A DNA stretch of 64,000 nucleotides from Candidatus Uhrbacteria bacterium (GTDB lineage Bacteria > Patescibacteriota > Patescibacteriia > UBA9934 > GWF2-40-263): the NCBI GenBank assembly GCA_016844925.1, contig JAERTI010000055.1, positions 1,459 to 65,458 on the forward strand, read 5' to 3'. Both the position numbers and the translations under genes were made by a program. The notes under the pieces are model-generated. The model was not told where the DNA came from and searched no databases. It saw only the letters and a program-made list of their open reading frames with translations. Below are positions 7,923-41,303 of the stretch, piece by piece (positions within the stretch are counted from its first letter, which is position 1; every line of letters starts with the position of its first letter).

Positions 7923-10124
7923 ATGAATATCAAAGCATCCCAATACGAGCCCACGAGTCCAGAGGAAAAGATTCGAGGGACATCTGTCCTTCTCCCGGTC
8001 GCCGATCGAGGAGGATATGTGTTCATGTTGGCGTACACAAAGAAGGAAAATGCCGACACAGAACTCCTCCTTGAGACCCTCATAGACCAAATCCATCGCC
8101 TTGCCGATTCTTTTGGGAAAGAATCGAACCCACAGCACCGCTTTGAACAATTTCTTGGCGCATTGAATGAAACGCTCTCGAGCCATGTCAGAGAGGGGCG
8201 CTGGACCGTTCCCATCAATAACGTGCACGCTATTGTAGGCATTGTCTCCGGTGGGCAAATGTTTCTCTCTGGAACCGGAGAGCTCACAGCCCTGTTCTTG
8301 CACAAGAAACCTTCACAGCGCTACCAGATCTATAATCTCTTCCGTGGCATTCAAACAGAGCAATCGCTCCCGACCTGGGAAAAACCTTTCGCTGTGGTTC
8401 TTGACGGTGATCTCCACGAAGGAGACGTCTTCTGTGTTTCAGACAAAGACTTGCAGCAAGCCATCGAAACCGATGAGCTTAATGGCATACTTTCAACACT
8501 CCCCCCTGTAAGTGCCGTTGAAAAAATCCGACAGTATTTCTCCCACAAGGACCCTCTCCTTTTAGTGATCATCAAACTCGATGATGGCTCCACAGCAAGC
8601 ATTGCCCCAGAGAGCGGATCGCCCGCCGTTCAACGAGCAGATGTTTCTGTTGAAGAACTTCTCGACACAGAAACATCTACCAGTCGCTTCCTTGAGGACC
8701 AGCGCCCAAGCATCTCCTCTCTTTTTCGGGGAGTCCAGCAATGGGTAAAGACAAAAACACAGTCAAAGTCCCGAATTCTCCAGGACCTCAATACAGAACG
8801 ATCATTTGTCACAACGCTCAAACGCCTTGGTCGAACCCTCATGCGCGGAATCATCTTCCTTGCAAAACGCTCGGTGAAACACGCCAAACGTGCCGTGCTA
8901 GCCCTGAAGAAAAAAGAATCACGTGAGCACATCAAGCAACAGGTACTGACTGGCGGCGGAGCAAAGGACCGAGCTCGCGCCATCATGCAATCGGCACAAC
9001 GCGTGCCCCGCTCTACCCTCTTTCTTGTACTAGGCGTCCTCATCGCCGTCATTATCCTTGCTGTTGGTATTTCCACCATCTCAAAGTCGCAGGCTCGCTC
9101 AGCTGAAGAAGAAGCCTATGCCAAACGCCTTACCACCATTGAGGACACCATCGAGCGTGCAGCCAGTGCTGTCATTTACAAAGATGAGGATCAAGCGCGC
9201 ACACTCTATCTAAACGCCGAAACGCTCATCGAAGAGCTCCCAACCGACACACCAGAACGCACCCAGAAAGTCTCTGAACTCACAGCAGACATCCAAGCGG
9301 CCATGGATGATATTCGTCACCTAGTTACTATTCCTAACCCACCATTGCTTGGAGACCTTGCCACGGTTACAGATGGCGTCTTTGGAAACGCTTTGGTTCA
9401 GACGCCAGACTCACTTTACGTTTTTGGTTCCGATGGGCGCGCGTATGAACTGAATCGTTCACAAAAAAGCTTTGACGTCTCCAGTGAAGCCCCTGAATCA
9501 GGAAGTATCGCTCAGCTGGGAACCCAAGAGGACGGCCGTGTCTACACCATGGACTCCATCGGAGAGATCTACCAGGTCACTGACACTGGAGCCAACAGTG
9601 TGAACCTGATCGACCCAAGCTGGGTAGACCTACAGGCCTATGCCGATCGCCTCTACCTGCTGCGTCCATCTTCCTCTGACCAAGAAGGTCAGATTGTGCG
9701 CTACACCCGAAGCGGATCTGAGTTCACTTCAGAAACAAACTGGATTACCTCCCGCACCGTTTCCTTTGACAATGCTGTGTCACTCACCATCGACGGCACC
9801 GTCTACGTGCTCATGCGCGACGGAAGCATCTCCCGATTCAGCAGCGGAAGCGAGGACGGCTGGGCTGCCGGAGCGGTTGAACCACGCATCACAGGCGCCA
9901 CAAGCATTTGGACGGACGCGGATTCATCCTATGTCTACGTCCTTGAGCCAAGTACTCAACGATTGATTGTCTTTGATAAGACCTCTGGTGAATTCTTAGT
10001 CCAATATTCCTCAAGCACCTTCACAGATCTCACAGACTTCGTGGTTGACGAATCGGACTACACCATTTATCTTCTAGCCGGATCGAAGCTCTACAGCATC
10101 GCCACTTCACATATCGATGAATAA
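7923..10124 (+). CDS. transmembrane signalling protein: N-terminal PP2C-like (possibly catalytically divergent) domain, single TM, C-terminal beta-propeller-like repeats
   Basis: Start ATG 7923 is preceded by GGAGGG (7903-7908) and a TATAAT at 7880-7885. Residues ~30-230 show a PP2C-fold pattern (..ADRGGYVFMLAY.., ..AIVGIVSGGQMFLSGTGELTALFL.., ..DGDLHEGDVFCVSDKDL.., ..LLLVIIKLDD) but lack the canonical DGHGG. TM helix LFLVLGVLIAVIILAVGI. The C-terminal 300 aa have repeated G-x-x-Y/V-L beta-strand units. Confidence 0.55.
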   Translation: MNIKASQYEPTSPEEKIRGTSVLLPVADRGGYVFMLAYTKKENADTELLLETLIDQIHRLADSFGKESNPQHRFEQFLGALNETLSSHVREGRWTVPINNVHAIVGIVSGGQMFLSGTGELTALFLHKKPSQRYQIYNLFRGIQTEQSLPTWEKPFAVVLDGDLHEGDVFCVSDKDLQQAIETDELNGILSTLPPVSAVEKIRQYFSHKDPLLLVIIKLDDGSTASIAPESGSPAVQRADVSVEELLDTETSTSRFLEDQRPSISSLFRGVQQWVKTKTQSKSRILQDLNTERSFVTTLKRLGRTLMRGIIFLAKRSVKHAKRAVLALKKKESREHIKQQVLTGGGAKDRARAIMQSAQRVPRSTLFLVLGVLIAVIILAVGISTISKSQARSAEEEAYAKRLTTIEDTIERAASAVIYKDEDQARTLYLNAETLIEELPTDTPERTQKVSELTADIQAAMDDIRHLVTIPNPPLLGDLATVTDGVFGNALVQTPDSLYVFGSDGRAYELNRSQKSFDVSSEAPESGSIAQLGTQEDGRVYTMDSIGEIYQVTDTGANSVNLIDPSWVDLQAYADRLYLLRPSSSDQEGQIVRYTRSGSEFTSETNWITSRTVSFDNAVSLTIDGTVYVLMRDGSISRFSSGSEDGWAAGAVEPRITGATSIWTDADSSYVYVLEPSTQRLIVFDKTSGEFLVQYSSSTFTDLTDFVVDESDYTIYLLAGSKLYSIATSHIDE

Positions 10125-11579: not shown

Positions 11580-11750
11580 AAAAATTGTTCGACCTTTAAT
11601 TAAAAACTGCAGACTTGCGCCGCAGTAGAAAAAGGTCGAAACCTTTCACCTCGACGGGACTTATGCGCTAGGCAACCCGTTGTCTACGGCAGATCTTCAG
11701 TTCGAGGAGATAATAGATCATTCATATTAGGCTGTCAACCGTTTACCAAA
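11580..11750 (-). promoter_or_regulatory. putative ribosomal protein L10 leader (autoregulatory 5' UTR of rplJL)
   Basis: ~170-nt ORF-free, structured-looking region directly 5' of rplJ and 3' of an upstream terminator. This is the position where the L10(L12)4-binding leader is conserved in bacteria. Not verified against the covariance model. Confidence 0.35.
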
Positions 11751-11751
11751 T

Positions 11752-11775
11752 AAAAAAACGAGTGGTCGTACACTC
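11752..11775 (-). terminator. Rho-independent terminator of the 11777..12154 gene
   Basis: Minus-strand CGAGTG-TACGAC-CACTCG hairpin followed by TTTTTTTATTT. Confidence 0.55.
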
Positions 11776-11776
11776 G

Positions 11777-12154
11777 TCAGGAAGCCTTGTTGAACACCTG
11801 ATCGCGCTCAAGGATCTCGACCCCCATCATCGGAGGGAGCAACGTCTTGAGGCCCAGCTCGTACTTGCGTGAGAATTCAGATGGGCCAGCAATTGACCGG
11901 CCAGAGAGCATGAGCACTCGCTTGTTCCCCAGACCCACATCGCCGATCACAGACAAGGACCAGTCGTTGTGTGTGCCCAGAACCCATCGCCCGAGACCAG
12001 CCTTACCTCCCTCAGGCTCCCACGTAGGGTCACCTGTTTCCCCCACGATGATCTGCTGAAGACGCCAGGCCAATGCTCGACCAGGATGATCACCCTCCTT
12101 GGCCATCCAGTACGAATCGTTTTCAGGAACAGCTATAAATACACTCACGTTCAC
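11777..12154 (-). CDS. hypothetical protein (GC-rich)
   Basis: 125-aa ORF with clearly higher GC than flanking ribosomal genes. Co-oriented with and immediately downstream of the PP2C gene. No recognisable motif. Confidence 0.4.
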   Translation of the reverse strand: MNVSVFIAVPENDSYWMAKEGDHPGRALAWRLQQIIVGETGDPTWEPEGGKAGLGRWVLGTHNDWSLSVIGDVGLGNKRVLMLSGRSIAGPSEFSRKYELGLKTLLPPMMGVEILERDQVFNKAS

Positions 12155-12231
12155 CTTCTTTCTGCCGGATAGAATCCAACGAAATTAAACTAAAGAAAAA
12201 ACAGCCCTGCGTCAAGGCTGTGCGTTGGGTG

Positions 12232-13098
12232 CTAGGGCACCACTCGGAAGTAAATGATCATGATGTCATCGTCAGGATCGATGCAGCGTGACGTGGTCAG
12301 AAGTTCGATCTCGTCCCAGGGCGTGACCCAGGCGCGGCCGCGGAGCTCCCTCATGACCTGCTCGACAATCTGGTTACCGCCGTCGACGCACAGGGCGAAT
12401 AGCTCGTGTTCTCCAACCTGTGAGAGCGGGAACGCGCGGCACTCGGGGATCGACGGAAGTAAATCTGCGAACTCCCAGTCACCGAAGGTGCGCGTTGGCT
12501 CGAGCCGAAGCGTGTGAGACTTGTCACTTGTGACGATCTTCAGGTACGTGATCGTTCCATTTCCGGACATTCGTTGATCCAAGGCGAACCGCTTCTGAGC
12601 CAGTGCGCCGGCGAGCCGACGTCGCTCAGCGCGATTGCTGTAGACATGATCGTCGGAAAGCCTCCTGTAGCCGACACCTCGATCCATCGAGACATAGAAA
12701 CGTCCATCCCCCACCTGAGACAGGTAAAACGTTTCATCAAGGAACGTGACACAACTCGCCACAGCCCCCACGAACCTCAGGCCTGCTCCAGGCTTCAGGC
12801 TTACGCGTTTGCGCCACGGCTCAAGAGACGTCGTCACCGCACTGAAGTTCCCATGCGCATGCACAGGTTCCGGCCGAGCCGTAAACCGATCGCGCAATCC
12901 CACAGCCACCTCGGCCGCAAAGTCAGCCACCTGGTGAGACTTGAGGATCTTGATGTTGTTGCGGTCTACTTCTGCCCCGTGACCATCGACCACGGCAGCA
13001 AAGAACGGTTCCCCCTCCTGGGAGTGCACCGCGCAAGCATCTTCGCTCGGACACCCCTCGTAGCGAGGGACGAACACGAACCGGTACTCAACCCGCAT
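12232..13098 (-). CDS. PP2C-family serine/threonine protein phosphatase
   Basis: ..FFAAVVDGHGAEV.. (DGHG metal-binding motif), ..LSDDHVYSN.AERRRL.., ..CVDGG.., C-terminal ..DDDIMIIYFRV (PP2C motifs 1, 5, 8, 11). GC-rich relative to backbone. Confidence 0.7.
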   Translation of the reverse strand: MRVEYRFVFVPRYEGCPSEDACAVHSQEGEPFFAAVVDGHGAEVDRNNIKILKSHQVADFAAEVAVGLRDRFTARPEPVHAHGNFSAVTTSLEPWRKRVSLKPGAGLRFVGAVASCVTFLDETFYLSQVGDGRFYVSMDRGVGYRRLSDDHVYSNRAERRRLAGALAQKRFALDQRMSGNGTITYLKIVTSDKSHTLRLEPTRTFGDWEFADLLPSIPECRAFPLSQVGEHELFALCVDGGNQIVEQVMRELRGRAWVTPWDEIELLTTSRCIDPDDDIMIIYFRVVP

Positions 13099-17156: not shown

Positions 17157-17434
17157 ACCCCCACATCATCAATAAATTCTCCGCAAGCAAACCCCTCGGG
17201 GCACTGCACATCAGATTCACACTCACAGTACTCCACACAAACATCAACACACACCTCGACATCTTCTCCACGACAAGCGCTCCCACAATCTTCCCACAAA
17301 CCCCCGGCCTCCTGACAAGATGCCTCTGTTAGTTCCCCCGCGGACCGTTCACGCACCTCAAGAACAGGTTCCTGTGTGGGAACACAACCTGTTCCCAGTA
17401 AAAGCACCGTCATTACTAGAGCGACGAACTTCAT
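17141..17434 (-). CDS. small acidic cysteine-rich lipoprotein
   Basis: 97 aa. Lipoprotein signal MKFVALVMTVLLLGTGC. Mature part is acidic with 10 further Cys in CxxC/CxC-like spacing (..CVDVCVEYCECESDVQCPEGFACGEF..). Overlaps both neighbours (operon). Confidence 0.55.
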   Translation of the reverse strand: MKFVALVMTVLLLGTGCVPTQEPVLEVRERSAGELTEASCQEAGGLWEDCGSACRGEDVEVCVDVCVEYCECESDVQCPEGFACGEFIDDVGVCIAL

Positions 17435-18831
17435 AACACGGCATGCTCACGTGCCCAGCGCTGCAGCTTGTACGTGGCGATTACATCATCCTCGTTGTAC
17501 TCCATAATCTTCTGCAGCAACTTCGGCTTCTTTGTCTTGAGCCATTCTTCAAACCACATCACCGAGTTTGCCCCTGAGGCGTCCTTTGCCCTCCACTGGA
17601 ACCCGATGTAGTTCGCAATATCTTTAAGTGAATAGAATGACAGTGGGAAAATCACCGCCGGTCGCACCACCGCGAGCAAGTCGATCATATTACGGTCAAG
17701 AGCCTCACGCGCGATCTCACTGATTCCATAACGCATCGCAAAGCGCTGCACAACTTCGTGCTCAAACCAACCGTAGTGATAAATAGGTGCATCTAGATGC
17801 CGCTCGATAAATTCAACAAACTCGGCCCACATGGCTCCCTCTTGCTCCGGACTCTCCGCAAAGAATGAGTGATACGTCTGCTCTCCCCCCTCCACGACCA
17901 ACACACCAAACAAATACTCAAAATCCCTTAAAGGATCTGCTTCGATATCAAAATATAATTCAATAGACGCTTCTGGCAACTCAACGCCATGACGAATCAT
18001 GTGCCGGTTCTCTGTAATCGCAATCGCCTGATCCCGCATGGTCTCCAGGCGCCCTGAGTGAACATCCGGAGCGATGGACTCAAGCTCAGAGACAGATTTC
18101 ACAGCCAACTGACGAATCGTTTCAATCCCCGCCTCAGAGAGACGCTTCACCTCTTCGCGCCAAACACGATTCAAGAGCGAAAGATCCTCACAGCTCTCCG
18201 ACTCACTTCGACACTCTGTAAACCATGGCGACTGCTTACACCCAGACGTCACAAAGTGCACCGGACGCTTTCCCGCAACAATCTTCTCAATCTCTGTCAG
18301 CGTAAGTTCGTACTGTGCTTCAAACTCTTCAATCGAATACGGCATCACCTCATTGTCCGCGCTCACAACATACCCCTTATAGGGCTTCGTCCCCTGCACG
18401 CGAGCCAGCAGCTCGGCATAAAAACATCCCTGGAACTTATGATCGTCTCGCACCTGTCGTGAACGTTTGATGTCTGCCGCGACATAATAGTGATCTCCGA
18501 GCTTGGACCGACCCTCAACTTTTTCCAAAATGTCTGGATGCCCCACCCAGTGCTTGTCTACAAGCACCCCATGAAAAATCGTCTGGCGCCCCTCGGCCAT
18601 AAAGGCGAGCGTCTGATTGAACGCCTCGTCAGGATCCTCAGCCGTCACCTCCACCAAATCCTCACGATCAGAAATAATGTCGCGTTCCTTATCCTCAATC
18701 ATCCCGTCATCTTGAAGCCGGTGCATGAGCGCCTCGTGGGGTCGCGCTGCCTGCGCGTGAGCATCAAAATACACCCAGTTTGGGCACTTGAGGTATTGAT
18801 AAAATGTCCGCTCTGTAATTTGACCTTGCAT
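17431..18831 (-). CDS. TM0106-family RecB-like nuclease (Cas4-like PD-(D/E)xK N-terminus + RNase-H-like C-terminal domain)
   Basis: 466 aa. N-terminal ..YQYLKCPNWVYFD.. and ..GCFYAELLA.. (Cas4/RecB-nuclease-like with Cys). C-terminal ..IELYFDIEADPLRDFEYLFGVLVV.. and ..YHYGWFE.. typical of the predicted exonuclease domain of COG2251/TIGR03491 proteins. Confidence 0.6.
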   Translation of the reverse strand: MQGQITERTFYQYLKCPNWVYFDAHAQAARPHEALMHRLQDDGMIEDKERDIISDREDLVEVTAEDPDEAFNQTLAFMAEGRQTIFHGVLVDKHWVGHPDILEKVEGRSKLGDHYYVAADIKRSRQVRDDHKFQGCFYAELLARVQGTKPYKGYVVSADNEVMPYSIEEFEAQYELTLTEIEKIVAGKRPVHFVTSGCKQSPWFTECRSESESCEDLSLLNRVWREEVKRLSEAGIETIRQLAVKSVSELESIAPDVHSGRLETMRDQAIAITENRHMIRHGVELPEASIELYFDIEADPLRDFEYLFGVLVVEGGEQTYHSFFAESPEQEGAMWAEFVEFIERHLDAPIYHYGWFEHEVVQRFAMRYGISEIAREALDRNMIDLLAVVRPAVIFPLSFYSLKDIANYIGFQWRAKDASGANSVMWFEEWLKTKKPKLLQKIMEYNEDDVIATYKLQRWAREHAVL

Positions 18832-18888
18832 GAGATAAGTATAACATGACCTGGCTCTTGATTGTGCTGCTTAAAGAAGGAGAGTCCC

Positions 18889-20058
18889 ATGCGCATTCGG
18901 AAGATTCCGTTCCCGCCCATCAACCTCCAGGCATGCCTGGATCCAGACCATCCCGATCACGAGGCTTCATGTACGGAGCTCAGGCGCCAAGCCTGCGACT
19001 ACGGTATTGCCATGCTGTCCGTCGAGGGCGTGACCCCCAGCAGCTACGCGCTGGTCCGTGCCATGATGGAGAGCTACTGGAGCCAGCCCAAGTCGGCACT
19101 GGACCTGGATGTCCGGCCCCAGCACCACCGGCAGGTGGGGCGCATGGAGGCCTACTGCGAAACGGCCATGCCCTACCCCGAGCGCCTCGCCGCGCTCGAG
19201 GAAGACCAGCAGCCGTACCCCCACGCGGGTCCGAACCCACTGGAGCGCTTCTTCTGGCGATTCGGTTCGCGCCCCAGCACGAGCCGCTTCCCCGAGCGTC
19301 ACGCTGACCCGGTCATCCCCGAGCGCTTCGAGCGCGAGTGGGAGCCGGTCATGAACAGCTGGGGCGAGATCGTCCTGGATACCCTGTTCGACCTGGCCGA
19401 GGCCTTGGAATTCGCGTTCCGTCTCCCGCCCGGCACCATGCTGAAGAAGCTGCAGGCGGGCCCCCACCTGATCTCGCCGACGGGCTGCAACCTCCTGGAG
19501 CTGCTGGCCAAGCGCTGCTACAAGCCCGTAGAAGAGCTGTCCTTCGCGCTCAGGCAAGCTGACAGCGAGAACAAGCTCCGTCAGATCAACCGCAACCTGA
19601 GCCTCACCGGCGCGGTCCTCTCTCACTACCACGACGACTTCAACCCCATCACCATCCACGGCCCGGCGAACATGCCCGGCCTGATCTGCTGGGCACGAAG
19701 TGGCGACCCGTTCACGCCCGAGATCCCGTCCGGCTGCCTGTTCGCCCAGTTCGGCGCACAGACCGAGCACCTGTTCGCCGGTGGCCTGCACGAAGATGGT
19801 CCCATGGCGGGCATGCACCAGGTGGTGGTGACCTGGGAGACGCTCCGTGCGCTCTGGATGCGCATCAGACTGGGCCTGCCGCCCATCCGCGTCTCCTCGA
19901 CCTTCTTCGGTCAGGGCAACGCAGACCAGCCCCTGGAGGTTCTGCCCCCGTTCCGTGTGGACGGCTGGCGCCAGCGCTACCCGAGCACCACCTTCGGCGC
20001 TCACTCGGCGGCCGTGATCGAGAAGATCGGTCTGGCCGCTCAGCAGATCGCTGGGTAA
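18889..20058 (+). CDS. 2-oxoglutarate/Fe(II)-dependent oxygenase superfamily protein (isopenicillin-N-synthase-like)
   Basis: Start ATG 18889 preceded by GAAGGAGAG. ..SHYHDDFNPITIHGP.. (HxD), ..GMHQVVV.. (distal His) and ..IRVSSTFF.. (RxS 2OG-binding) in the expected order. Markedly GC-rich, and the long antisense ORFs are GC artefacts. Confidence 0.55.
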   Translation: MRIRKIPFPPINLQACLDPDHPDHEASCTELRRQACDYGIAMLSVEGVTPSSYALVRAMMESYWSQPKSALDLDVRPQHHRQVGRMEAYCETAMPYPERLAALEEDQQPYPHAGPNPLERFFWRFGSRPSTSRFPERHADPVIPERFEREWEPVMNSWGEIVLDTLFDLAEALEFAFRLPPGTMLKKLQAGPHLISPTGCNLLELLAKRCYKPVEELSFALRQADSENKLRQINRNLSLTGAVLSHYHDDFNPITIHGPANMPGLICWARSGDPFTPEIPSGCLFAQFGAQTEHLFAGGLHEDGPMAGMHQVVVTWETLRALWMRIRLGLPPIRVSSTFFGQGNADQPLEVLPPFRVDGWRQRYPSTTFGAHSAAVIEKIGLAAQQIAG

Positions 20059-20065
20059 TCCCCAA

Positions 20066-20092
20066 CGCCCCGTCGTACCACGACGGGTTTTT
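20066..20092 (+). terminator. Rho-independent terminator after the oxygenase gene
   Basis: CCCGTCGT-ACCA-ACGACGGG followed by TTTTTTG. Confidence 0.55.
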
Positions 20093-20118
20093 TGTTACGA
20101 TAATCTCTAGGAGAATCC

Positions 20119-20607
20119 ATGGACGACGACCCAGCCCGCCGCGCGCAACGCTTTCCACTGCTGATCAAACTCGACGAAGACGGTATCGAGTTCACGCACT
20201 TCTTCAACCGCATGGGGCACGTTCGCCTCCCACCCCAGTTCCCCGACCCGCTCCAGAAGCGTGTCCTACAGCTGATCGAACGACTCATGGCTCTACAGAT
20301 CCAAGCCCTCCAGCTCATCCCCGATGAACTACCTCGCTACCAGATCAACGGCACCTGGTCCCCGCTCCCCGCCTCGCTCACCCCAGAGACAGAAGACACC
20401 CTCTTGCTGACTGCCTGGTGGATGGAGCTCGAGAGACGAAAGACCACCCGCCACGACGACTGGGACTGCCAGGAGTGCGGGAAGCTCGTCACACGCAAGC
20501 GTGGAATCTGCCAGAATCACGAATGTGTCTCGTGGGACATCCTCCACATCATCACGGGAGACCCTCATCTCCACCTCGTGCCCAAGACCGGCACAGACAA
20601 CGACTGA
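20119..20607 (+). CDS. hypothetical protein with C-terminal CxxC...CxxxxC zinc-ribbon-like motif (GC-rich)
   Basis: 162 aa, AGGAGA RBS. ..DWDCQECGKLVTRKRGICQNHEC.. No family recognised. Confidence 0.45.
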   Translation: MDDDPARRAQRFPLLIKLDEDGIEFTHFFNRMGHVRLPPQFPDPLQKRVLQLIERLMALQIQALQLIPDELPRYQINGTWSPLPASLTPETEDTLLLTAWWMELERRKTTRHDDWDCQECGKLVTRKRGICQNHECVSWDILHIITGDPHLHLVPKTGTDND

Positions 20608-20665
20608 CCCTCTTGAGGGTAACCTCTCCGATCTTACGTCGGAGTTTTTTCTTTATCCATTGACA
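20605..20665 (+). repeat. copy of the GACCCTC..GAGGGT terminator/-35 junction module (divergent copy)
   Basis: TGA-CCCTCTTGAGGGTA hairpin starting at the stop codon, a second hairpin CTCCG..CGGAG+T6, then TTGACA at 20660-20665. Same family as copies at 26907, 28507, 29149, 29526 and (minus strand) 41261-41291. Confidence 0.6.
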
Positions 20666-20767
20666 AAACACATAAAAAGCCCGTACGCTCCCATCGCTCA
20701 CACAAGAGGCAAGCAACTCCGCCCAACTCTTTGCACGCTCTAGGTGCTCGCGTGAGACAACAGGACC

Positions 20768-21901
20768 ATGGAACAGAGGCAGACCGCCTTGTTCGCCCCG
20801 CGGCTTCTCGTCGCATCCTTCATCATCCTCACGGGCGCTGCCTGCGGTGACCTCTCGGTCTCCGACACGGCGCTCAATGAGTTCGAGCACGCCGGTGGTG
20901 TGTGGGAAACGGACGATGGATTCAGCCACATCGTCTACGATGGCAACAGCTACGGCGACTCCATCACCGACTGCATGAGCACGGAGTACGACTTCGCCCT
21001 CATGTTCGGGGAGTGCTACGAGTACGCTTCCATCCCCTACGCCCTGGGCGCGGTGACGAGTGGCGGCACCATGGACGTGGAGAACCAGTCCACGGGCTCA
21101 TGGGCCACCATGGACGCCTCCAGCTTCCTGGACTTCAACGGCCTCACCCCCGGCATCGCCCGCGTGCTCTGCTACACGGACAAGCCGGAGGAGTACAAGG
21201 CCGACTGCGAGGTCGAGAACGACTACGACAGCTTCGCCCCGGACTTCTACATGGAGATCGACACGGGCGACTACAACACCATCACGGTCTACCGTGGCAG
21301 TGCCAGCAGCGGCCTGGGCGAAGTGTTCCTGGGCAAGGACGGCGACTACAACTGCGACGGCGTGGACACCCCGGACGCCACCGTGCGCCTGGTCCGCACC
21401 TCGCTGGCCTACGACAGCGCGATCATCGAGCTGCTGGGCGAAGGCGGTCACGTCACATGGCCCGAGTGCATGCCCGACGGCTGGTACGACGAGCCCGAGG
21501 ACACCGGCGGTGCCGGCGACACGGGTGGTGACACCGGCATGGCGGGAACCGGTGAGAGCGAGGAGGTTCAGAACTTCCAGTATCCACCGATGTTCTACAT
21601 CACGAAGATCAACGCCCTGTGGCAGGTGACGCCCCAGAGCCAGCAGGCCTACCAGGCCACGGCGGACAGCTTCTTCGAGGAGCACCACCCCGAGCTCTAC
21701 GGCAGCGACATCCACCTGTTCGTGATGCGCCGCATCGACGCGTACTTCACCGACGCCTCCACCCGCGTGTTCTACGACACCCTCCTGAACACCATGGACC
21801 TGGCCGTCGCGCTGGATCTGCAGGCCCCTGCGAACAAGATCTTCGGGCACTGGATCAAGAACTACCGCCACTGGGAAGCCAACCGACAGAACCCTTTCTA
21901 G
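20768..21901 (+). CDS. secreted lipoprotein (hypothetical, GC-rich)
   Basis: 377 aa. Signal peptide with lipobox (..ILTGAACG). Asp/Gly/Thr-rich. No known domain. Followed by terminator CCCTGACC-TACGAC-GGTCAGGG+TTTTTATTT (21907-21940). Confidence 0.5.
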   Translation: MEQRQTALFAPRLLVASFIILTGAACGDLSVSDTALNEFEHAGGVWETDDGFSHIVYDGNSYGDSITDCMSTEYDFALMFGECYEYASIPYALGAVTSGGTMDVENQSTGSWATMDASSFLDFNGLTPGIARVLCYTDKPEEYKADCEVENDYDSFAPDFYMEIDTGDYNTITVYRGSASSGLGEVFLGKDGDYNCDGVDTPDATVRLVRTSLAYDSAIIELLGEGGHVTWPECMPDGWYDEPEDTGGAGDTGGDTGMAGTGESEEVQNFQYPPMFYITKINALWQVTPQSQQAYQATADSFFEEHHPELYGSDIHLFVMRRIDAYFTDASTRVFYDTLLNTMDLAVALDLQAPANKIFGHWIKNYRHWEANRQNPF

Positions 21902-21984
21902 GAGGAACTCCCCCTGACCTACGACGGTCAGGGATTTTTATTTGTTTGGCATCAAAAAACTCAGGGAAAAACCCTGAGTGTTAC

Positions 21985-23115
21985 TTACCGATAATTAGCC
22001 GGCTCATACACATTCCGCGCATTCCACAGAATCCACCCACTCGCGCCCGCATCTCTTGCCGCCTGTATCTGCGCCTCGATCAAATCTGCTGTGTATACCG
22101 CTCCGATATCGAAATCCTGTAACCATGGCCGACTCCGCGCCGCCAGCTCTTCATCTGAGCACGCACACAACCCTCGTGTCAGGCGCAGCCCCTCGTCAAG
22201 CGACATCTTCACAATCTCATAGGGATGCTTGGCTGGATTCGCTAGCCCCTTAAATCCGTCTGGGTAGTGACTTGGATAGACCATCGGTGAAATGTAATCA
22301 GCGTACGGCAACACATCTACCAGGCGCTGACCAATGTTGTAATCGTTATAGGACCAATACGTCATCCCGAAAAGATCGAACGACACAGGAATCTCTTTCT
22401 CCTGCATGGCCCCTCCTACAGTTTTAAAAAACCGCTGCATCACATCCACCTTTGACTCGATGCCATCGTACACGGGATACACAATCGCATTGACTGCGCC
22501 ATCTGAAGCAAAGCGCACATAGTCATACTGAATCTCATCAAACCCGAGCTCATAGAGCGCCTCCCCAAGCTCAATCACCTCCTGGGCAACAATTGGCGCT
22601 GCGGGGTCAACCCAAATCGAGCCAATGCTGTCATACCAATAGCCTCCCCCCGCTGTCCTGAGGGCTACATTCGGCCAGACGCGAGCCATTTCTCCATTGC
22701 GCATCACAGCAATGCGCGCGATGCGATAGATCCCCGCCTCAGCAAGTTCTGAGAGCACTGGCGTAAATTCCTCAATGTCGACAATCGTCCCATCGTCCAG
22801 CTGCGCATCAATCACCACGGCGTTAAGTCCGGTCTCAGTTATATACCCAAGCAACTCATCGGCACGAGCCGAACGCGCTGTGACCGCTGTCCAGTAGATG
22901 CCGCGGACTTCATCGGGAATTGGCACACGTGTCGTGGTCGCCACTTCTGGGGCAACCTCTTCTTCCAGCACTTGCTCCTCAGCAACTTCTGATACTGGCA
23001 CCGTACGCTCCTCGTCTTGCTCAACAGAAACAATCCCTCCAACCAAAAACGGAATTCCTGCGAGCACAATCAAAAACACAGGCACCATCCAGGTGAACCT
23101 GTGTTTTGTTTCCAT
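21985..23115 (-). CDS. GHL10-type putative glycoside hydrolase (YngK-like TIM barrel), membrane-anchored
   Basis: 376 aa. TM anchor, then ..IRGIYWTAVTA....DELL.YI.ETGLNAVVIDA.. and a TIM-barrel-like pattern typical of the glycosyl-hydrolase-like 10 family. Confidence 0.5.
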   Translation of the reverse strand: METKHRFTWMVPVFLIVLAGIPFLVGGIVSVEQDEERTVPVSEVAEEQVLEEEVAPEVATTTRVPIPDEVRGIYWTAVTARSARADELLGYITETGLNAVVIDAQLDDGTIVDIEEFTPVLSELAEAGIYRIARIAVMRNGEMARVWPNVALRTAGGGYWYDSIGSIWVDPAAPIVAQEVIELGEALYELGFDEIQYDYVRFASDGAVNAIVYPVYDGIESKVDVMQRFFKTVGGAMQEKEIPVSFDLFGMTYWSYNDYNIGQRLVDVLPYADYISPMVYPSHYPDGFKGLANPAKHPYEIVKMSLDEGLRLTRGLCACSDEELAARSRPWLQDFDIGAVYTADLIEAQIQAARDAGASGWILWNARNVYEPANYR

Positions 23116-24882: not shown

Positions 24883-25146
24883 ATACCCCCAGTATATCAG
24901 GAAACAAAAAATAGGGGGCTCGATGCCCTCTATTTTTTACTCCTCACCACCTCACCTTCCATTCGGTCCACCACGGCGAACGAGCGCTGGGACAATTTTG
25001 AGTCGGACAGTGTCCCTATAGATCTCAAAATTCGTACCAGCGATCGGTTCGCCCAGCCATAGCGAGACTACACGCCCCCATCTCGACAGGCTCGATGAGT
25101 ATTTGTCGAAGCAATCGAAAAGCCTCAAGTGTCTGCTTCACGAGCA

Positions 25147-26348: not shown

Positions 26349-26891
26349 ATGCCCCCTGCTCCTGCTCCCCCGTTCCTGACTCGACTCGACGCCTACAGCC
26401 TCTCCCAAGCCGAGAACATCCTCTTCCTGGGAAGCCTCTGGTTCCTGTTCATGAGCTTCCTCATGTTCGTGCAGCCGGGCCCTCTGGATCCGAAGCTGCT
26501 AATCGGCATGACCATCACGCTTCTGGCCGGCGTTGGACTTGGGTGCTGGAGCATCTGGTACCAGCTCACCGGCGAGCACAACGTGTACAAGAAGTTCATC
26601 ACCCTGTGTGAGGAGCAAAGGCTCCTGCAGCAAGGTGAAGAGCTCGCCGCCAGCTACGCGCAGATCAACAGACTCCGACGCATCTACAAGGAAGACACGA
26701 GCCTGTCTGAGACCATGGTGGCGCGCATGCTCAAGGACCTCGACCTCGAGGAAGAACTCCTCCGCGAAACGCAGGTGGCCCTCCACCTCAAGCAGGCGCC
26801 GCTCCTGCAACGAGCCTTCGAGGCAAGCCGCCACGCGTTCCCCTGGGAGAACTTCACCGAGACGGCCAAGCAACCCGCTGTGAGCACCTAG
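26349..26891 (+). CDS. 2-TM membrane protein with C-terminal coiled-coil (island cassette 1)
   Basis: 180 aa. RBS AGAAAGG 7 nt upstream. Two hydrophobic helices then a charged helical tail. GC-rich. Confidence 0.5.
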   Translation: MPPAPAPPFLTRLDAYSLSQAENILFLGSLWFLFMSFLMFVQPGPLDPKLLIGMTITLLAGVGLGCWSIWYQLTGEHNVYKKFITLCEEQRLLQQGEELAASYAQINRLRRIYKEDTSLSETMVARMLKDLDLEEELLRETQVALHLKQAPLLQRAFEASRHAFPWENFTETAKQPAVST

Positions 26892-26906
26892 CTCACGACG
26901 CCCACC

Positions 26907-26939
26907 GACCCTCACGCGAAGGGTCTTTTTCTTTTGACA
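26907..26939 (+). repeat. terminator/-35 junction module copy
   Basis: GACCC-tcacgcgaa-GGGTC, T5, CTTTTGACAA (TTGACA 26934-26939). 17 nt later TAACGT. Confidence 0.65.
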
Positions 26940-26991
26940 AAAGCTCTCAAAACTCCTAACGTCACCCCCTGCTCTTTCAAAGGAGACGCGG

Positions 26992-28509
26992 ATGGCAACG
27001 ACCAGACTCCGGTGGCTCAGCCGGTACCCAATCCCGGGAACAACTGGCCAGCTCATCGGTTCCAAAACAAACGGACTACGCCCTGCAGCAAACGCCTCAG
27101 GTGTGCTTTCAGAGCACATGTCCAACCACGTCCTGAAGAAAATCAATGGCGACCCAGAAGTTCTCGAAGAGATCCTCAGGGCCGTGGTCAACTACTCGGT
27201 GGCCGATTTCCAATGTGCCGCGCATGCGCGCACGGCCATCTTCCGGTGCCTGGTGCAAACGGGTGACAAGTACCTCACTCAACTAGACAGCCTGCTCACC
27301 AAAGCCCACAGGACCTTCTCCAGAATCCCCTACGCTCTGAACATGATCGGCTTCACTGAAGCATGCGGGTTCCGCTACGATCGCGTCGAGCACTACCTCA
27401 TGCTCATCGAAACCCTCGATACCTTCATGGCACGTGAGGTGGGGCCCTGGCTGCCACACGACGACAGACGGAAGCGACCTGCTTACGTTAGCGGTGCGGC
27501 CAAAGGCCTGTCAGAACAACTCGGTCTCGAACCAGGTTCTCTGAAAGCGCTCGGTAAGCCTCCGCTCAGACTTAGACCACGAACTCTCGCTCTAAGCTGC
27601 GAGCTTCACCTCACAGCGCCGGGCGTGAACGAGCTCATGCAGTACACCACGGCCGGCGGAATCGCCCTCACCCTCGGGGCCCTCTGGAGGACCGTCGATG
27701 CCATGCTCCACGCGGGCATGTCTTCCGGATCATTACGCAAGTTCGTCGAACGACTGAACGTCCCCATGCTTCGCTGGGCGCACCAATGCCTCCAAGCAGG
27801 CTCCATCGATCTCAAGATGGTTCGTGCACTACCCCAGCAGCCACTGGACTGGTACATCGCACAGAAAGACCTAAACCTAGACGTTCTCCCTGTGCTGAAA
27901 GCCTGGTCCGATGAAGGCCACCCCTGTGGGTGGAGTGAGTGGATCAAGTTGGGTGGTACCACAGACGCCTGGCAACAAGAGGCCAAAAGGCAGGAGCAGC
28001 GCAAACTCGAACGAGAAGCGCACTTCGCTCAAAAGCAGGCAGGGACAAAGCCGCCATCGCCGCGACCCAAACCAATCCCTACGGTGTCACCTGCGAATCA
28101 AACCCCCACGGGAAGAAAGCGACACCATCCTGGCCACAAAGCACAAGAGCAGACGCAGGAAATCAACTGGGGGGAGACTCTCGTGAATCTCGTAGAGATG
28201 GTTCAAAGCCACCTAGACGATGTTGATGACAATCTCTCCGCTGGAATCCTCCTCTCGCTCATCCGCTCGGGTGATCGCCTCATGCCACGGTCCCGCTGGC
28301 CCAAGATGAAACTCAACAAGCTTCGTCGAGAAGTGAAGCGGCTGGTCGACGGCGCAAGCAACCGTGAGATCAATGCCGCGCTTGGATCCCTAGAGGCCAT
28401 CCGCCTTGTCCGGCAGACCGCTGGCAAGTACCACATCTCCGAAACCACGCCGCGCCACACGGGCGCAGCCGAAATCCGCAAAAGGCTCATCAGCCTCTGC
28501 AGCTCCTGA
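26992..28509 (+). CDS. 505-aa hypothetical soluble protein (island cassette 2)
   Basis: RBS AAAGGAGA. No recognisable motif. Pro/basic-rich linker (..KPPSPRPKPIPTVSP..) between two helical halves. Confidence 0.5.
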   Translation: MATTRLRWLSRYPIPGTTGQLIGSKTNGLRPAANASGVLSEHMSNHVLKKINGDPEVLEEILRAVVNYSVADFQCAAHARTAIFRCLVQTGDKYLTQLDSLLTKAHRTFSRIPYALNMIGFTEACGFRYDRVEHYLMLIETLDTFMAREVGPWLPHDDRRKRPAYVSGAAKGLSEQLGLEPGSLKALGKPPLRLRPRTLALSCELHLTAPGVNELMQYTTAGGIALTLGALWRTVDAMLHAGMSSGSLRKFVERLNVPMLRWAHQCLQAGSIDLKMVRALPQQPLDWYIAQKDLNLDVLPVLKAWSDEGHPCGWSEWIKLGGTTDAWQQEAKRQEQRKLEREAHFAQKQAGTKPPSPRPKPIPTVSPANQTPTGRKRHHPGHKAQEQTQEINWGETLVNLVEMVQSHLDDVDDNLSAGILLSLIRSGDRLMPRSRWPKMKLNKLRREVKRLVDGASNREINAALGSLEAIRLVRQTAGKYHISETTPRHTGAAEIRKRLISLCSS

Positions 28510-28536
28510 CCCTCCTGAGGGTCTTTTTTCTTGACC
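28507..28536 (+). repeat. terminator/-35 junction module copy (stop codon included)
   Basis: TGA-CCCTCCTGAGGGTC-TTTTTT-C-TTGACC. -10 TACGGT 17 nt downstream. Confidence 0.7.
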
Positions 28537-28593
28537 AAGCCCTCCATCTCCCCTACGGTGGCCCTCCGGCGTACGCTGGTAAAGGAACGTACC

Positions 28594-29151
28594 GTGTCAC
28601 CACACCACACCCCTTTCGAGCAAAGAAAGGGGCCCACCTACTTCACCTACGACGAAGTGCTCGCAAAGAGCGACGTGCAGATCATTGCCCTGAGCCTGCT
28701 GATCCCCGTGATGTTTGGCGCTCTGGCAGCGGCCTGGATCTACTTCCCCATCCCAACCACCGCCCAAGACAACATCCCGCTCTTGGTGACCGCTGGCTTG
28801 ATCTCCTCGCTCTGCGCCGGAGGCATCGGCGTCTCGCGCCTCCTGCGCTTCGACCGCACGCTTCACGCCGTGCGAACAAGCGACGAGGGAAAGAGGCTCT
28901 TCAACCGAGGGAGCACCTTGGCCACACTCCACCAGGCAATCCTGAAGGAGGAGGAAGATAACCACTTTCCTCGAACCAAAGATTCCTTTGAAAAGCGCGC
29001 ACAACGCTACCTTGACCGCTGGACGTACTACATCTCGCAGGCCGAGGCGCTCCACCGAGAGCAGCACAACCTCCTCAAGCTCTTCTACCGAAACGAAAAG
29101 CAGCCCGATCCCTGGAAGGATCGATGCAACTGCCCCAAGTTCGGACTCTGA
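28594..29151 (+). CDS. 2-TM membrane protein with charged C-terminal tail (island cassette 3)
   Basis: GTG start 6 nt after AAAGGAA. ..IIALSLLIPVMFGALAAAWIYFPIP.. and ..LLVTAGLISSLCAGGIGV.. helices. Confidence 0.5.
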   Translation: MSPHHTPFEQRKGPTYFTYDEVLAKSDVQIIALSLLIPVMFGALAAAWIYFPIPTTAQDNIPLLVTAGLISSLCAGGIGVSRLLRFDRTLHAVRTSDEGKRLFNRGSTLATLHQAILKEEEDNHFPRTKDSFEKRAQRYLDRWTYYISQAEALHREQHNLLKLFYRNEKQPDPWKDRCNCPKFGL

Positions 29152-29179
29152 CCCTCCTGAGGGTCTTTTTTCTTTGACA
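29149..29179 (+). repeat. terminator/-35 junction module copy (stop codon included)
   Basis: TGA-CCCTCCTGAGGGTC-TTTTTT-CTTTGACAA. -10 TTAGAT 17 nt downstream. Confidence 0.7.
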
Positions 29180-29239
29180 ATTCAACAAATCAACGCTTAG
29201 ATACCGACGTCACAGCACGCGTGACAGAAAGGATGCTTC

Positions 29240-29518
29240 GTGAGCGAACAGAAGATTACCCCAGCTGCCCTGCGCACGGCCTTCAAGCAGTCCATCAGAA
29301 ACTCTCTGGTGGTGGCACTCATCCTGGTCATCTCCATGGCCGTTCTGAGATTCGGCGTCTCACCGGAACCCAACGCAGAGGCCCATGCAATCGTCCTGGG
29401 CTTTGCTGCGCTCCTGCTGGTGATCGTCCTCTGGCACATGATCGGCAACATCTTCTTCTACTGGACCCACCCCGTCCGACGCGCAGCACTCCCAGACCAC
29501 CAGGAACCCTCCTCCTGA
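29240..29518 (+). CDS. small 2-TM membrane protein (island cassette 4)
   Basis: 92 aa. GTG start 6 nt after AAAGGA (same RBS-to-start geometry as cassette 3). The overlapping 135-aa ORF in another frame reads through the terminator and is rejected. Confidence 0.45.
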   Translation: MSEQKITPAALRTAFKQSIRNSLVVALILVISMAVLRFGVSPEPNAEAHAIVLGFAALLLVIVLWHMIGNIFFYWTHPVRRAALPDHQEPSS

Positions 29519-29525
29519 CCACGCC

Positions 29526-29569
29526 GACCCTCCTGAGGGTCTTTTTTCTTTTCCGCAGAACCATTGACA
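29526..29569 (+). repeat. terminator/-35 junction module copy
   Basis: GACCCTCCTGAGGGTC-TTTTTT-CTTTTCC...TTGACA (29564-29569), 17 nt, TATATT (29587-29592). Confidence 0.7.
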
Positions 29570-29651
29570 TTTCAGTTAAAATGAACTATATTCTCGCTCT
29601 GCTTCATTTGTCATGGTGGAGCGGATGAACCCTACTGAAAGGAGACATGAC

Positions 29652-30491
29652 GTGAGGAAAATCCTCTTTCCCCTGCTGGTCGCGGCGGCCACGCTGCTCA
29701 CCGGCTGCTACGGAACGAACGTGGTCATCAACCCGGCGGAAGTCGGACGCGAGCTGAACCCCAGCGGGCTCAGCGAGACGATCCTCCAGCCGAGTTCCTT
29801 CAACCTCGACTGGTGCATGTACACCTGTCCGAAGCTGGTCCGCCTCGAGGTCGCCAAGGCCACCCGCGAGATCACCATCGAGCGCGTGTTCCTGCCCAAG
29901 AGCAACGTGGACCTCAGCGACGTCGAGATCGCGATGCAGTTCCGCGTCCGCCAGGACCAAGACTCCATCAACACGGTGTTCTCCGAGGTCACCCCGCAGC
30001 CCGCGGGTGTCGAGGACACCATGCTCATCTCCAACGAGATGATCTACGCCACCTACCTCGAGCGCATCGGCCCGGAGGCCGTGATCGAGGCGCTGCGTGA
30101 GTACACCGTCGAGGACGTGCTCTCCAACGTGGGCGAGATCGGCGCGCACTCGCGCGACATGGTCAACCAGCGACTGGGCGACAGCCCCGTCGAGGTGACC
30201 GAGCTCTCCTTCCCCAACGGCATCGGCGACCCGCCCGAAGAGGTCCTGGTGGCCAAGCGGCTGCTGTACGCGGTCGACGAGGAGAAGGCACGCGAGGTCA
30301 AGGCCCTGGAGGCCGAGCTCGCCGTGGAGGAGCAGCGCCAGGCCGTGCAGATGGCCCGCGCCAAGAACGACCTGGCCGTGGCCAAGGTGGTGGGCGTCCG
30401 CTACGACGTCTACACCGAGCTCAAGATCATGGAGCGCTTCGCCGAAGAAGAAGTGCCCCTGGGCTACATCCCCGGCGCCAGCGGCCGATAG
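29652..30491 (+). CDS. SPFH/band-7 (stomatin/prohibitin/flotillin/HflK-like) domain lipoprotein
   Basis: GTG start 7 nt after AAAGGAG. Signal peptide with lipobox LLTGC. ..SDVEIAMQFRVRQ.. and especially ..FPNGIGDPPEEVLVAKRLLYA.DEEKAREVKALEAELAVEEQRQAVQMA.. match the SPFH core including the DPPEEV hallmark. Confidence 0.7.
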   Translation: MRKILFPLLVAAATLLTGCYGTNVVINPAEVGRELNPSGLSETILQPSSFNLDWCMYTCPKLVRLEVAKATREITIERVFLPKSNVDLSDVEIAMQFRVRQDQDSINTVFSEVTPQPAGVEDTMLISNEMIYATYLERIGPEAVIEALREYTVEDVLSNVGEIGAHSRDMVNQRLGDSPVEVTELSFPNGIGDPPEEVLVAKRLLYAVDEEKAREVKALEAELAVEEQRQAVQMARAKNDLAVAKVVGVRYDVYTELKIMERFAEEEVPLGYIPGASGR

Positions 30492-30503
30492 AAGGAGAAC
30501 GAC

Positions 30504-30887
30504 ATGAACTTCCTCGGACTGATTTCCTTCCTGGTCTTCGTCGCCCTCCTGATCGGCGGCGGTCTCTGGGCGATCCGTCACTCCATCACCCGTGAGGAGG
30601 AGGACGAGCGGAAGATCTTCAAGTACGGTGGCTGGGTGGCCATCGCCCTGGGGGTGTTCATCACCCTGGGCGTGCTCAACAGCTACGGCAAGATCGACGC
30701 CCCCAACCCCCTATCCGCTCCCGAAGCCGAGATCTCCTCGGTTCCCGCGGAGCGCGCCGAACCCCGAGCCCCCACCTTCGAAGAGGACACCACTCCCTCG
30801 GAGATGGAGAAGGCGCGGGAGGATCAGCGCAAGTCGGTGGACGAGTTCACCGAGCACACGAGCAAGGACGACGCGACCGACGAGTAG
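30504..30887 (+). CDS. small 2-TM membrane protein, likely SPFH-partner (NfeD/YqiJ-like role)
   Basis: 127 aa. RBS GAAGGAGA. Two TM helices then an acidic tail. Starts 13 nt after the SPFH gene (operon). Confidence 0.5.
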   Translation: MNFLGLISFLVFVALLIGGGLWAIRHSITREEEDERKIFKYGGWVAIALGVFITLGVLNSYGKIDAPNPLSAPEAEISSVPAERAEPRAPTFEEDTTPSEMEKAREDQRKSVDEFTEHTSKDDATDE

Positions 30888-30902
30888 TCGCGCCCCTGCA
30901 CC

Positions 30903-30928
30903 CCTGGCCACACCGGTCAGGGTTTTTA
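30903..30928 (+). terminator. terminator after SPFH operon, with an adjacent convergent terminator for the minus-strand hydroxylase gene at ~30940-30965
   Basis: CCCTGG-CCACACCGGT-CAGGG+TTTTT. The second hairpin is CACCGC-tgcgt-GCGGTG with an A-run on the plus strand. Confidence 0.5.
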
Positions 30929-30966
30929 CATACAAAAAAATCACCGCTGCGTGCGGTGAGTTGCGT

Positions 30967-31851: not shown

Positions 31852-31975
31852 TACCCCCTATCCGAGCCCGAGCGGCTCGAAGCCAGATTGTCACGCACAT
31901 GCGTGAGTGTCAATAAAGAGTTGACAAGCCCCCCTTGGGGCCCTAACCTCCAATCACCTGCGACTGGAGATTGAC

Positions 31976-41238: not shown

Positions 41239-41260
41239 AACGGGGCCATAGTATCATACG

Positions 41261-41291: not shown

Positions 41292-41303
41292 TCGTGTGTG
41301 CAC

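Follow-up and report, generated by a model that had tools for sequence, protein, structure and literature searches.

The question addressed here is how three genes of strongly deviant base composition came to stand between two native genes in the chromosome of Candidatus Uhrbacteria (Patescibacteria/Candidate Phyla Radiation [CPR]), an uncultured groundwater bacterium. In the window, which denotes the whole analyzed stretch of 64,000 nucleotides of contig JAERTI010000055.1, three open reading frames (ORFs) on the + strand, referred to as ORF1, ORF2, and ORF3 and collectively as the islet, fill the interval between two - strand genes. The left flank encodes a Cas4/RecB-like nuclease with an RNase_H_2-type fold (17431-18831; PF13482, E=1.2e-39; weak Cas4 match); this gene is native and is read in the direction away from the islet. 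The right flank is a native DUF4015 gene for a GHL10-type putative glycosyl hydrolase (21985-23115; PF13200, E=1.1e-72), which is syntenic in relatives. A terminator-like hairpin followed by a T-run is located 3' of every islet ORF (20069-20087, 20626-20644, and 21912-21933). The initial annotation had described three co-oriented genes with their own terminators between a nuclease and a GHL10 hydrolase, and the ORFs, the hairpins, and the Pfam matches of the flanks confirmed all parts of this description.

The GC content in 1-kb windows was 0.60 to 0.67 over 18.5 to 22 kb, compared to approximately 0.50 on both sides. At third codon positions (GC3), it reached 0.867, 0.773, and 0.910 in ORF1, ORF2, and ORF3, respectively. 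The 47 native genes averaged 0.551 (standard deviation, 0.058), which corresponds to z values of 5.4, 3.8, and 6.2, so the GC richness noticed in the initial annotation is a strong deviation. At first and second codon positions (GC1 and GC2), the GC content was raised only slightly, with GC1/GC2/GC3 values of 0.65/0.46/0.86 for ORF1, and the intergenic spacers of the islet ranged from 0.44 to 0.52. Nearly all of the excess is therefore carried by third codon positions. Two further GC3-rich stretches are present in the window, at 26.3 to 32.8 kb and 41.3 to 42.7 kb.

We conclude that the interval is probably a small flexible genomic islet, that is, a strain-variable accessory slot holding three self-contained, moron-like genes. 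It appears to be neither a single nor a recent insertion; its genes would derive from a pool that recurs at the same slot and is old within Uhrbacteria.

Content of the slot in relatives and in a sister strain

The slot is bounded by the DUF4015 gene on one side and by the nuclease gene promoter on the other, and its content depends on the lineage. It is designated site A in the conserved gene order LexA, site B, MetK, p150, HC2, PPIase, DUF4015, site A, nuclease, p97, C39 peptidase, DUF2938, ExoVII and was compared in about 14 genomes. Site A was empty in L010 (33 nt) and near-empty in L011 (99 nt), from which DUF4015 is absent. A homologue of ORF2 was the only gene in L009 and L012, was present up to the point where the contig ends in L017, and was accompanied by 3 to 4.5 kb of other genes in L013 to L016. 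A JGI contig carried ORF2 and ORF3 (65% identity), L049 combined ORF2, a 168-amino-acid (aa) gene, ORF3 (61% identity), and a 165-aa gene, and L062 harbored nothing but a homologue of ORF1 (42% identity). The identities of the ORF1 and ORF3 homologues found in the same slot of other species thus span 42 to 65%. Since ORF1 occurs alone (L062), ORF2 occurs alone (L009 and L012), and ORF2 and ORF3 occur together without ORF1 (the JGI contig and L049), the islet genes are separable. The gap between the nuclease gene and the ORF1 homologue of L062 (7640-7960) contains tandem repeats of approximately 29 nt, ACGCGTGTGTCATCCTGAGGARCATCG, and an inverted set, GGATGACACGGGAA, in three copies around a masked N run.

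A sister strain (L001 to L006) shares approximately 92% DNA identity with the window. It has ORF1 and ORF2 at the same location, with aa identities of 94% and 96%, respectively, and, where the window has ORF3, an unrelated 476-aa gene whose product looks cytoplasmic. A homologue of the latter gene is the sole occupant of site A in L007. Homology to the sister strain breaks at 20620, within the terminator hairpin of ORF2, and is restored from 21980 onward, where DUF4015 ends, next to the convergent terminator that a hairpin scan placed at 21959-21979 on the - strand for this native gene. Identity between the two strains is a mosaic of 75 to 100% per 300-nt segment. The synonymous divergence (dS) varies from 0.09 to 0.60, with values of 0.18 for ORF1, 0.16 for ORF2, 0.60 for the nuclease, and 0.43 for DUF4015. 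Mosaic identity and the spread in dS fit frequent homologous recombination. The ratio of nonsynonymous to synonymous divergence (dN/dS) was 0.17 for ORF1 and 0.12 for ORF2, which indicates that both are real genes under selection. The ORF1-ORF2 arrangement recurs in eight contigs, and the six that were retrieved originate from six different metagenome assemblies. Together with the dN/dS values, this recurrence argues that the islet is not an artifact.

The 476-aa gene of the sister strain is directly followed by a copy (L001, 7410-7608; 87% identity) of a conserved structured element of approximately 200 nt. The element is located in the MetK/p150 spacer in the window (24895-25110, - strand) and also at 10691-10903 of L001, and L007 contains a copy (8074-8232) in the same position relative to its homologue of the 476-aa gene. 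Its predicted structure is a long stem ending in a terminator (minimum free energy of -84 kcal/mol; z=-3.9), and no Rfam family matched it; it could be a small RNA gene or a small repeat travelling with the 476-aa gene.

Site B, between LexA and MetK, was empty in L010, L013, L015, and L016, so that L010 lacks insertions at both sites. The five-gene block of DUF4015, PPIase, HC2, p150, and MetK is syntenic where site B alone or both sites are empty and is therefore ancestral, which makes sites A and B two separate hot spots.

The relationship between ORF2 and the nuclease bears directly on the age of the islet. A homologue of ORF2 adjoins the nuclease gene in ten Uhrbacteria genomes, and it is directly divergent from it in L009, L012 to L017, and L049. 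The identity of ORF2 follows that of the nuclease (r=0.85) yet drops far faster: a nuclease identity of 95% is paired with 73% for ORF2, and one of 92% is paired with 42%. Because the two identities track each other, a long vertical coinheritance of both genes is indicated. The initial annotation had regarded the islet as an insertion; a single or recent event is contradicted by ORF2, which adjoins the nuclease gene in ten genomes and whose divergence parallels that of the nuclease.

Flexible genomic islands of the replacement or additive type, a concept attributed to Rodriguez-Valera and Lopez-Perez, reportedly reside at conserved hot spots. The islet resembles them in its fixed position between core genes, with a content that differs across the approximately 14 genomes, in strain differences at approximately 92% identity, in the lack of an integrase, in mosaic core neighbors, and in holding a putative surface protein and ORFans. 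It differs from them in being tiny (3 kb and three genes), in the insulation of each gene by a predicted promoter and terminator, in a GC3 that is elevated by 0.2 to 0.35 even for a vertically inherited gene, and in the repeated terminator-promoter sequence that some of its junctions share.

Coding content and predicted signals of the islet

The three genes appear to be functionally unrelated, and each seems to be transcribed separately, being equipped with a sigma-70-like promoter, an intrinsic terminator, and a ribosome-binding site of its own. A similar organization is said to characterize phage morons, which, in the concept of Hendrix and Juhala, are autonomous promoter-gene-terminator insertions of deviant composition. 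The islet shares with morons the single genes with predicted sigma-70-like promoters and intrinsic terminators, the deviant GC content, and the presence/absence pattern. In contrast to morons, it is located in a cellular chromosome amid housekeeping genes, with no phage genes or PHROG matches.

ORF1 (18889-20058, + strand; 389 aa) was assigned to the Fe(II)/2-oxoglutarate (2OG) dioxygenases, in which it would be a divergent member of the isopenicillin N synthase (IPNS)-like type (DIOX_N plus 2OG-FeII_Oxy). Its start was taken as the ATG six bases past AGGAG (18878-18882), whereas the mechanical ORF begins from TTG at 18862. A PDB sequence search with ORF1 alone gave nothing meaningful, and a word-indexed protein search returned two relatives only. 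An exhaustive profile search yielded 678 cluster representatives at E<=1e-3 (314 at E<=1e-10), several of which are labeled "isopenicillin N synthase-like dioxygenase" in the source databases. Among 50 aligned relatives, 27 match PF03171 (2OG-FeII_Oxy) and 24 match PF14226 (DIOX_N). The profile of this 50-sequence family matched 43 solved 2OG oxygenases in the PDB, with 3oox as the best (1.3e-27), and its matches include thymine dioxygenase (5c3p; 1.4e-16), the ethylene-forming enzyme, ANS, ACC oxidase, and IPNS.

The motifs H248-x-D250, H310, and R334-x-S336 are invariant in both close homologues of ORF1 and align with HGD, HRV, and RYS of 3oox. All 50 family members have D250, and conservation among them is 90% or higher at H248, H310, and R334. 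The oxygenase call of the initial annotation, which was based on these motifs, was thereby upheld by profile searches, with evidence that is transitive: the HxD, H, and RxS residues are conserved, and it is the family profile that matches solved 2OG oxygenases. The assignment through the family profile was regarded as confirmed. Compared to IPNS-like dioxygenases (PF14226 plus PF03171; 3oox and 5c3p), ORF1 shares the HxD...H triad and RxS. Unlike them, it falls under the Pfam thresholds by itself, is encoded by a CPR bacterium, and contains an insertion of approximately 30 residues (about 205-236) that separates two conserved halves. Because the HxD...H metal triad and the RxS 2OG site are present, the enzyme should need O2.

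A promoter-like site of ORF1, TTGACC-16 nt-TAACAT (18820-18847, + strand), scored 9/12 in a consensus scan and overlaps the start codon of the nuclease gene. On the opposite strand, a TATACT box (complement of 18832-18850) ends approximately 6 to 8 nt before the ATG of the nuclease gene, which has no Shine-Dalgarno sequence; the distance is 6 nt in the window, and the box reads TATAAT in relatives (L009 and L012 to L016). This spacing suggests that the nuclease mRNA is leaderless, with a predicted promoter that overlaps the beginning of the oppositely oriented islet gene.

ORF2 (20119-20607, + strand; 162 aa) is lineage specific and is preceded by a -10-like TACGAT (20096-20101) and an AGGAG (20109-20113). 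The pairs C117-x2-C120 and C131-x4-C136, as well as an L-T-x-W-W motif, do not vary among ten homologues whose overall identities are 24 to 47%. Only weak matches were obtained in Pfam (CoiA_N, 0.014; Zn_ribbon_9, 0.064), none of them to a described family at significance, and the profile of ORF2 gave weak zinc-finger matches in the PDB (0.0011, with no passing stretch). Of the zinc-ribbon assignment made in the initial annotation, the conserved ribbon-like arrangement of four cysteines was recovered, whereas no significant match to a zinc-ribbon family or structure was found. ORF2 would accordingly be described as a fast-evolving, four-cysteine protein of putative zinc-ribbon type that was probably inherited with the nuclease gene. 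Adjacency alone suggests a functional link between the two, and their constant pairing suggests that ORF2 is an uncharacterized partner protein of the Cas4-like nuclease.

The nuclease itself matched Cas4 models of PADLOC down to 1e-9. Its orthologues in metagenome-assembled genomes (MAGs) of Uhrbacteria are 69 to 98% identical, and those of 69 to 85% identity are mostly from Uhrbacteria/Patescibacteria MAGs, with a few records labeled otherwise. Several repair and SOS genes are situated near the variable sites (14484-45564), namely, xseA/xseB, the nuclease gene, lexA, dinB (IMS family), uvrD, and a gene for an HhH-GPD glycosylase.

ORF3 (20768-21901, + strand; 377 aa) is predicted to be a cysteine-rich surface lipoprotein. 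Its N terminus, MEQRQTALFAPRLLVASFIILTGAAC(26), ends in the lipobox LTGAAC with cysteine 26, and those of the homologues end in ...SMIGC and the canonical ...LLIAC. Signal peptide and lipobox cysteine, judged by eye according to a PROSITE PS51257-type rule, support the earlier lipoprotein call. Six conserved cysteines mark the N-terminal domain of the protein, which a linker rich in D, T, and G joins to a helical C-terminal domain. Its homologues comprise one identical database copy, one protein of 65% identity, and one of 61% identity, all from Uhrbacteria contigs; the latter two are encoded in the same slot. Searches of Pfam, NCBIfam, PHROG, PADLOC, and PDB gave no match to ORF3. A promoter-like TTGACA-18 nt-TACGCT (-10 box at 20684-20689) and a 5' leader of approximately 70 nt can be read from the sequence at 20660-20767 (+ strand), and L049 has a conserved version of this leader ahead of its ORF3 homologue.

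Junction modules and alternative origins of the islet

The islet resembles a second region of the window, an array at 26349-32803. Both consist of GC3-rich single-gene units on the + strand with predicted TTGACA promoters and GACCCT-type terminators, and both are strain variable. Junctions in the array carry a module with the consensus GACCCT(C)-loop-(G)AGGGTC TTTTT(T)CTTT(T)GAC(A)A, which reads as an intrinsic terminator abutting the -35 box for the following gene, with a TAnnnT -10 box after 17 to 18 nt. The canonical copy A1 is located at 26907-26940, and other copies are located at 28508-28538, 29150-29180, and 29526-29556 (all + strand); three array modules carry an identical 16-nt hairpin. 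Another canonical module (41255-41299, - strand; consensus at 41291) follows a single-gene GC-rich islet at 41304-42689. The number of module copies expected by chance in the window is approximately 0.02.

In most modules, the preceding ORF stops at a TGA located inside the hairpin (cTGACCCT...), as at 20605-20607, 28507-28509, 29149-29151, and L001 5864-5866. Since the stop codon forms part of the hairpin, ORF ends and terminators are physically fused. The array also holds an OlsE-like fatty-acid hydroxylase gene and an inositol-monophosphatase/CysQ-like gene, both with a GC3 of 0.85. The unit at 41304-42689 (- strand) is a single 461-aa ORFan with a GC3 of 0.79 and no family match, and its module stands immediately upstream of uvrD (39142-41238). 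Another strain-variable site, between rplJ and an amino-acid kinase gene (11717-12767), comprises approximately 1 kb without a counterpart in the sister strain (L002), consisting of a 125-aa ORF and a portion of a gene for a PP2C phosphatase; a weak module-like terminator match is found at 12182-12228 (- strand; 16.7 bits; E=0.025).

Within the islet, the junction of ORF2 and ORF3 (20606-20665, + strand) belongs to the same family. A hairpin, GACCCTCTTGAGGGT, overlaps the TGA of ORF2 and is followed by a second hairpin (20626-20644), TTTTTTCTTTATCCA, and the TTGACA of ORF3 (20660-20665). Positions 20598-20664 match the array module GACCCTC-loop-GAGGGTC TTTTTTCTTTGACAA, split by the 23-nt second hairpin. 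The junction is thus a disrupted module copy, and it also coincides with the left breakpoint between the two strains; an intact module, TGACCCTCTTGAGGGTCTTTTTCATTGACA, occupies the ORF2 junction of the sister strain. The two remaining junctions behaved differently in a covariance model (R1) built from 13 module copies. The ORF1 terminator (20069-20087, + strand; an 8-bp stem and then TTTTTTG) was not recovered and is outside the module family, and the ORF3 terminator (21912-21933, + strand), which is followed by ATTTTTATTT, scored 11.9 bits (E=0.66). The junction-module family that the initial annotation took to be shared by islet and array therefore extends to the ORF2/ORF3 junction but neither to the ORF1/ORF2 junction nor to the ORF3 terminator. 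Related module copies are present in L007 and L049, and the ORF2 terminator of L049 displays compensatory stem changes (GACCTCT/AGAGGTC), like an ordinary orthologous terminator.

Differences between the array and its counterpart in the sister strain comprise whole cassettes bounded by modules. The segment 26940-28505 (505-aa ORF, 26992-28509) is replaced by a 181-aa ORF, and 29561-30935, with an SPFH-like lipoprotein gene and a 127-aa ORF (29613-30887), is absent.

These observations bring up the explanation that the islet, the array, and the 41.3- to 42.7-kb gene form one dedicated, integron-like capture system for GC-rich foreign genes, with the module as its recombination site. We consider this unlikely. 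Six modules in 64 kb, confined to GC-rich segments where 0.02 would be expected and including three copies of the identical 16-nt hairpin, are compatible with such a site, but the junctions are plain terminator hairpins that do not resemble attC, every cassette has its own predicted promoter, and two of the three islet junctions are not modules. The array differences do start and end at modules, the left breakpoint of the ORF3 swap is in the ORF2 hairpin, and most cassettes are ORFans. Nevertheless, ORF2, which has the canonical module in the sister strain, is inherited vertically, its L049 orthologue shows the compensatory stem changes, and the native block between the sites is ancestral.

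The likeness to integron arrays extends to co-oriented single-gene cassettes, mostly ORFans, with short palindromic junctions between them and a strain-dependent content. No IntI was found among more than 40 scanned proteins (ORFs of approximately 100 aa and longer), and a Pfam scan of this set, drawn from the window and from the variable sites of relatives, detected no recombinase, transposase, or integrase. No phage or defense gene was found among the scanned proteins with either the islet or the array. The junctions are perfect hairpins of 16 to 19 nt with T-runs instead of 57- to 141-nt attC sites with a GTTRRRY core, and, unlike the promoterless cassettes of integrons, each cassette here has a predicted promoter, TTGACA-17-18 nt-TAnnnT.

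The exact module had no match in an IMG/VR scan, and its degenerate form retrieved six unrelated terminators of low-GC phages; a scan of a metagenome collection with the module also retrieved six unrelated generic terminators. A hairpin and T-run that recur as a generic terminator in unrelated phages and metagenome contigs are not diagnostic of a system and arise convergently. A mobile-element origin of the module was likewise without support from the two scans. The proposal of the initial annotation that islet and array are parts of one acquisition system split by native genes was consequently rejected: the block is ancestral, the hot spots are two, no recombinase was detected in the scanned proteins, and the hairpin is generic.

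A second explanation, that the islet was recently imported from a donor of approximately 65% GC outside Uhrbacteria and has not yet ameliorated, is quite improbable. The GC1/GC2/GC3 values of ORF1 are typical of a genome of that composition. However, the GC3 of the ORF2 homologue exceeded that of the adjacent nuclease gene in all genomes checked (for example, 0.68/0.47, 0.74/0.62, and 0.42/0.27), whatever the GC content of the host, which makes a recent foreign origin unlikely. GC3 is also raised in the homologues of ORF1 (L062), ORF3 (L049), and the 476-aa gene (L007). The word-indexed protein search gave very few homologues, as would be expected of a recent import, but homologues of 42 to 65% identity were found for all three genes at the same slot in other Uhrbacteria species, and no close homologue of ORF2 or ORF3 was seen in any non-Patescibacteria source. 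Furthermore, ORF2 codiverges with the nuclease, and the dS values of 0.16 to 0.18 for ORF1 and ORF2 place both genes before the split of the sister strains. The islet genes are oriented opposite to the surrounding - strand genes, which might also point to an import, but the + strand GC skew, strongly negative throughout 14484-45564, passes through the islet without change. Nearly all native genes of this region are on the - strand. A general strand effect was ruled out as the cause of high GC3, as other Uhrbacteria loci showed no GC3 difference between the + and - strands.

It is very unlikely that the three genes constitute one functional unit for defense or surface modification, in which the oxygenase would act on the lipoprotein or on nucleic acid under the control of the zinc-ribbon-type protein and the neighboring nuclease. 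Such a unit would fit the shared orientation and close spacing of the genes, the constant position of ORF2 beside the Cas4-like nuclease gene, and the general ability of 2OG oxygenases to modify proteins and nucleic acids. Against this count the separability of the genes in relatives, the replacement of ORF3 in the sister strain by an unrelated protein that looks cytoplasmic, the terminator of each gene, and the lack of PADLOC matches. ORF1 to ORF3 had no matches in PHROGs, PADLOC, and NCBIfam, tRNA and Rfam scans of the window detected none, and exact-sequence look-ups of ORF1, ORF3, and the nuclease gave no match. Least credible of all is a remnant of a prophage or integrated element carrying true phage morons, since the moron-like build and deviant GC content are offset by the lack of PHROG matches, by the absence of an ORF3 relative and of module copies from IMG/VR, and by flanks of conserved housekeeping genes with no integrase, tRNA, or direct-repeat boundary detected at the islet.

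Proposed cassette turnover and significance of the slot

Under our preferred reading, a flexible islet fed from an old accessory pool, genomes would differ by which cassettes of the pool stay in the slot. Turnover would most likely occur by ordinary homologous recombination after DNA uptake, with the conserved flanking genes providing the homology for cassette exchange. The repeated terminator-promoter junctions may offer microhomology at the left islet breakpoint as well as in the array, and no dedicated recombinase would take part. High GC3 would be a long-standing trait of the accessory pool instead of a sign of fresh arrival; exchange with relatives of higher GC content may maintain it, or GC-biased gene conversion may do so at a hot spot of recombination. 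Patescibacteria contain abundant genomic islands with mostly intraphylum transfer (PMC12455944); the literature searched contains such general reports, none of which describes this locus or module.

Several observations weigh against parts of this reading. The recombination mechanism is deduced from the breakpoints between one pair of strains, the ORF3 swap has its right breakpoint at the end of a native gene and not at a module, and the difference may instead have arisen by reciprocal loss if the ancestor held ORF3 as well as the 476-aa gene. Independent terminators would not have to be as similar as the three 16-nt array hairpins, which are identical. The GC3 values of ORF1 (0.87) and ORF3 (0.91) exceed those of the GC-richest Uhrbacteria loci seen (0.71 to 0.78), and both causes named for the persistence of high GC3 are proposals that may apply. 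The predicted promoters and terminators of the islet are matches to consensus sequences. With respect to the gene products, ORF1 alone had DIOX_N as its sole Pfam match (E=0.08; 14.1 bits versus a cutoff of 27.3) and did not match PF03171, a narrow profile of three sequences matched no solved oxygenase in the PDB, and AlphaFold2 models computed from three-sequence alignments reached a mean pLDDT (predicted local distance difference test) of 37.2 for ORF1 and 33 for ORF3, too low for use.

A more far-reaching and rather doubtful idea is that Uhrbacteria possess "cassette bays," in which GC3-rich single-gene cassettes are swapped at the terminator-promoter junction as an integrase-free analogue of integrons. 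If so, natural transformation might drive the exchange, possibly with help from the nuclease and ORF2, and GC-biased gene conversion at these places would explain the lasting high GC3. Apart from its persistently high GC3 and the pairing of ORF2 with the nuclease, the islet conforms to known patterns of flexible islands and reveals no new mechanism.

For the biology of these bacteria, ORF2, which is vertically inherited and yet has a GC3 well above that of its host in all genomes checked, is a possible test case for distinguishing GC-biased gene conversion from repeated exchange. The locus as a whole provides a delimited example of how tiny CPR genomes vary, through insulated single-gene units at fixed hot spots amid housekeeping genes. 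The units swapped between strains of approximately 92% identity include a predicted O2-dependent dioxygenase and a predicted surface lipoprotein.

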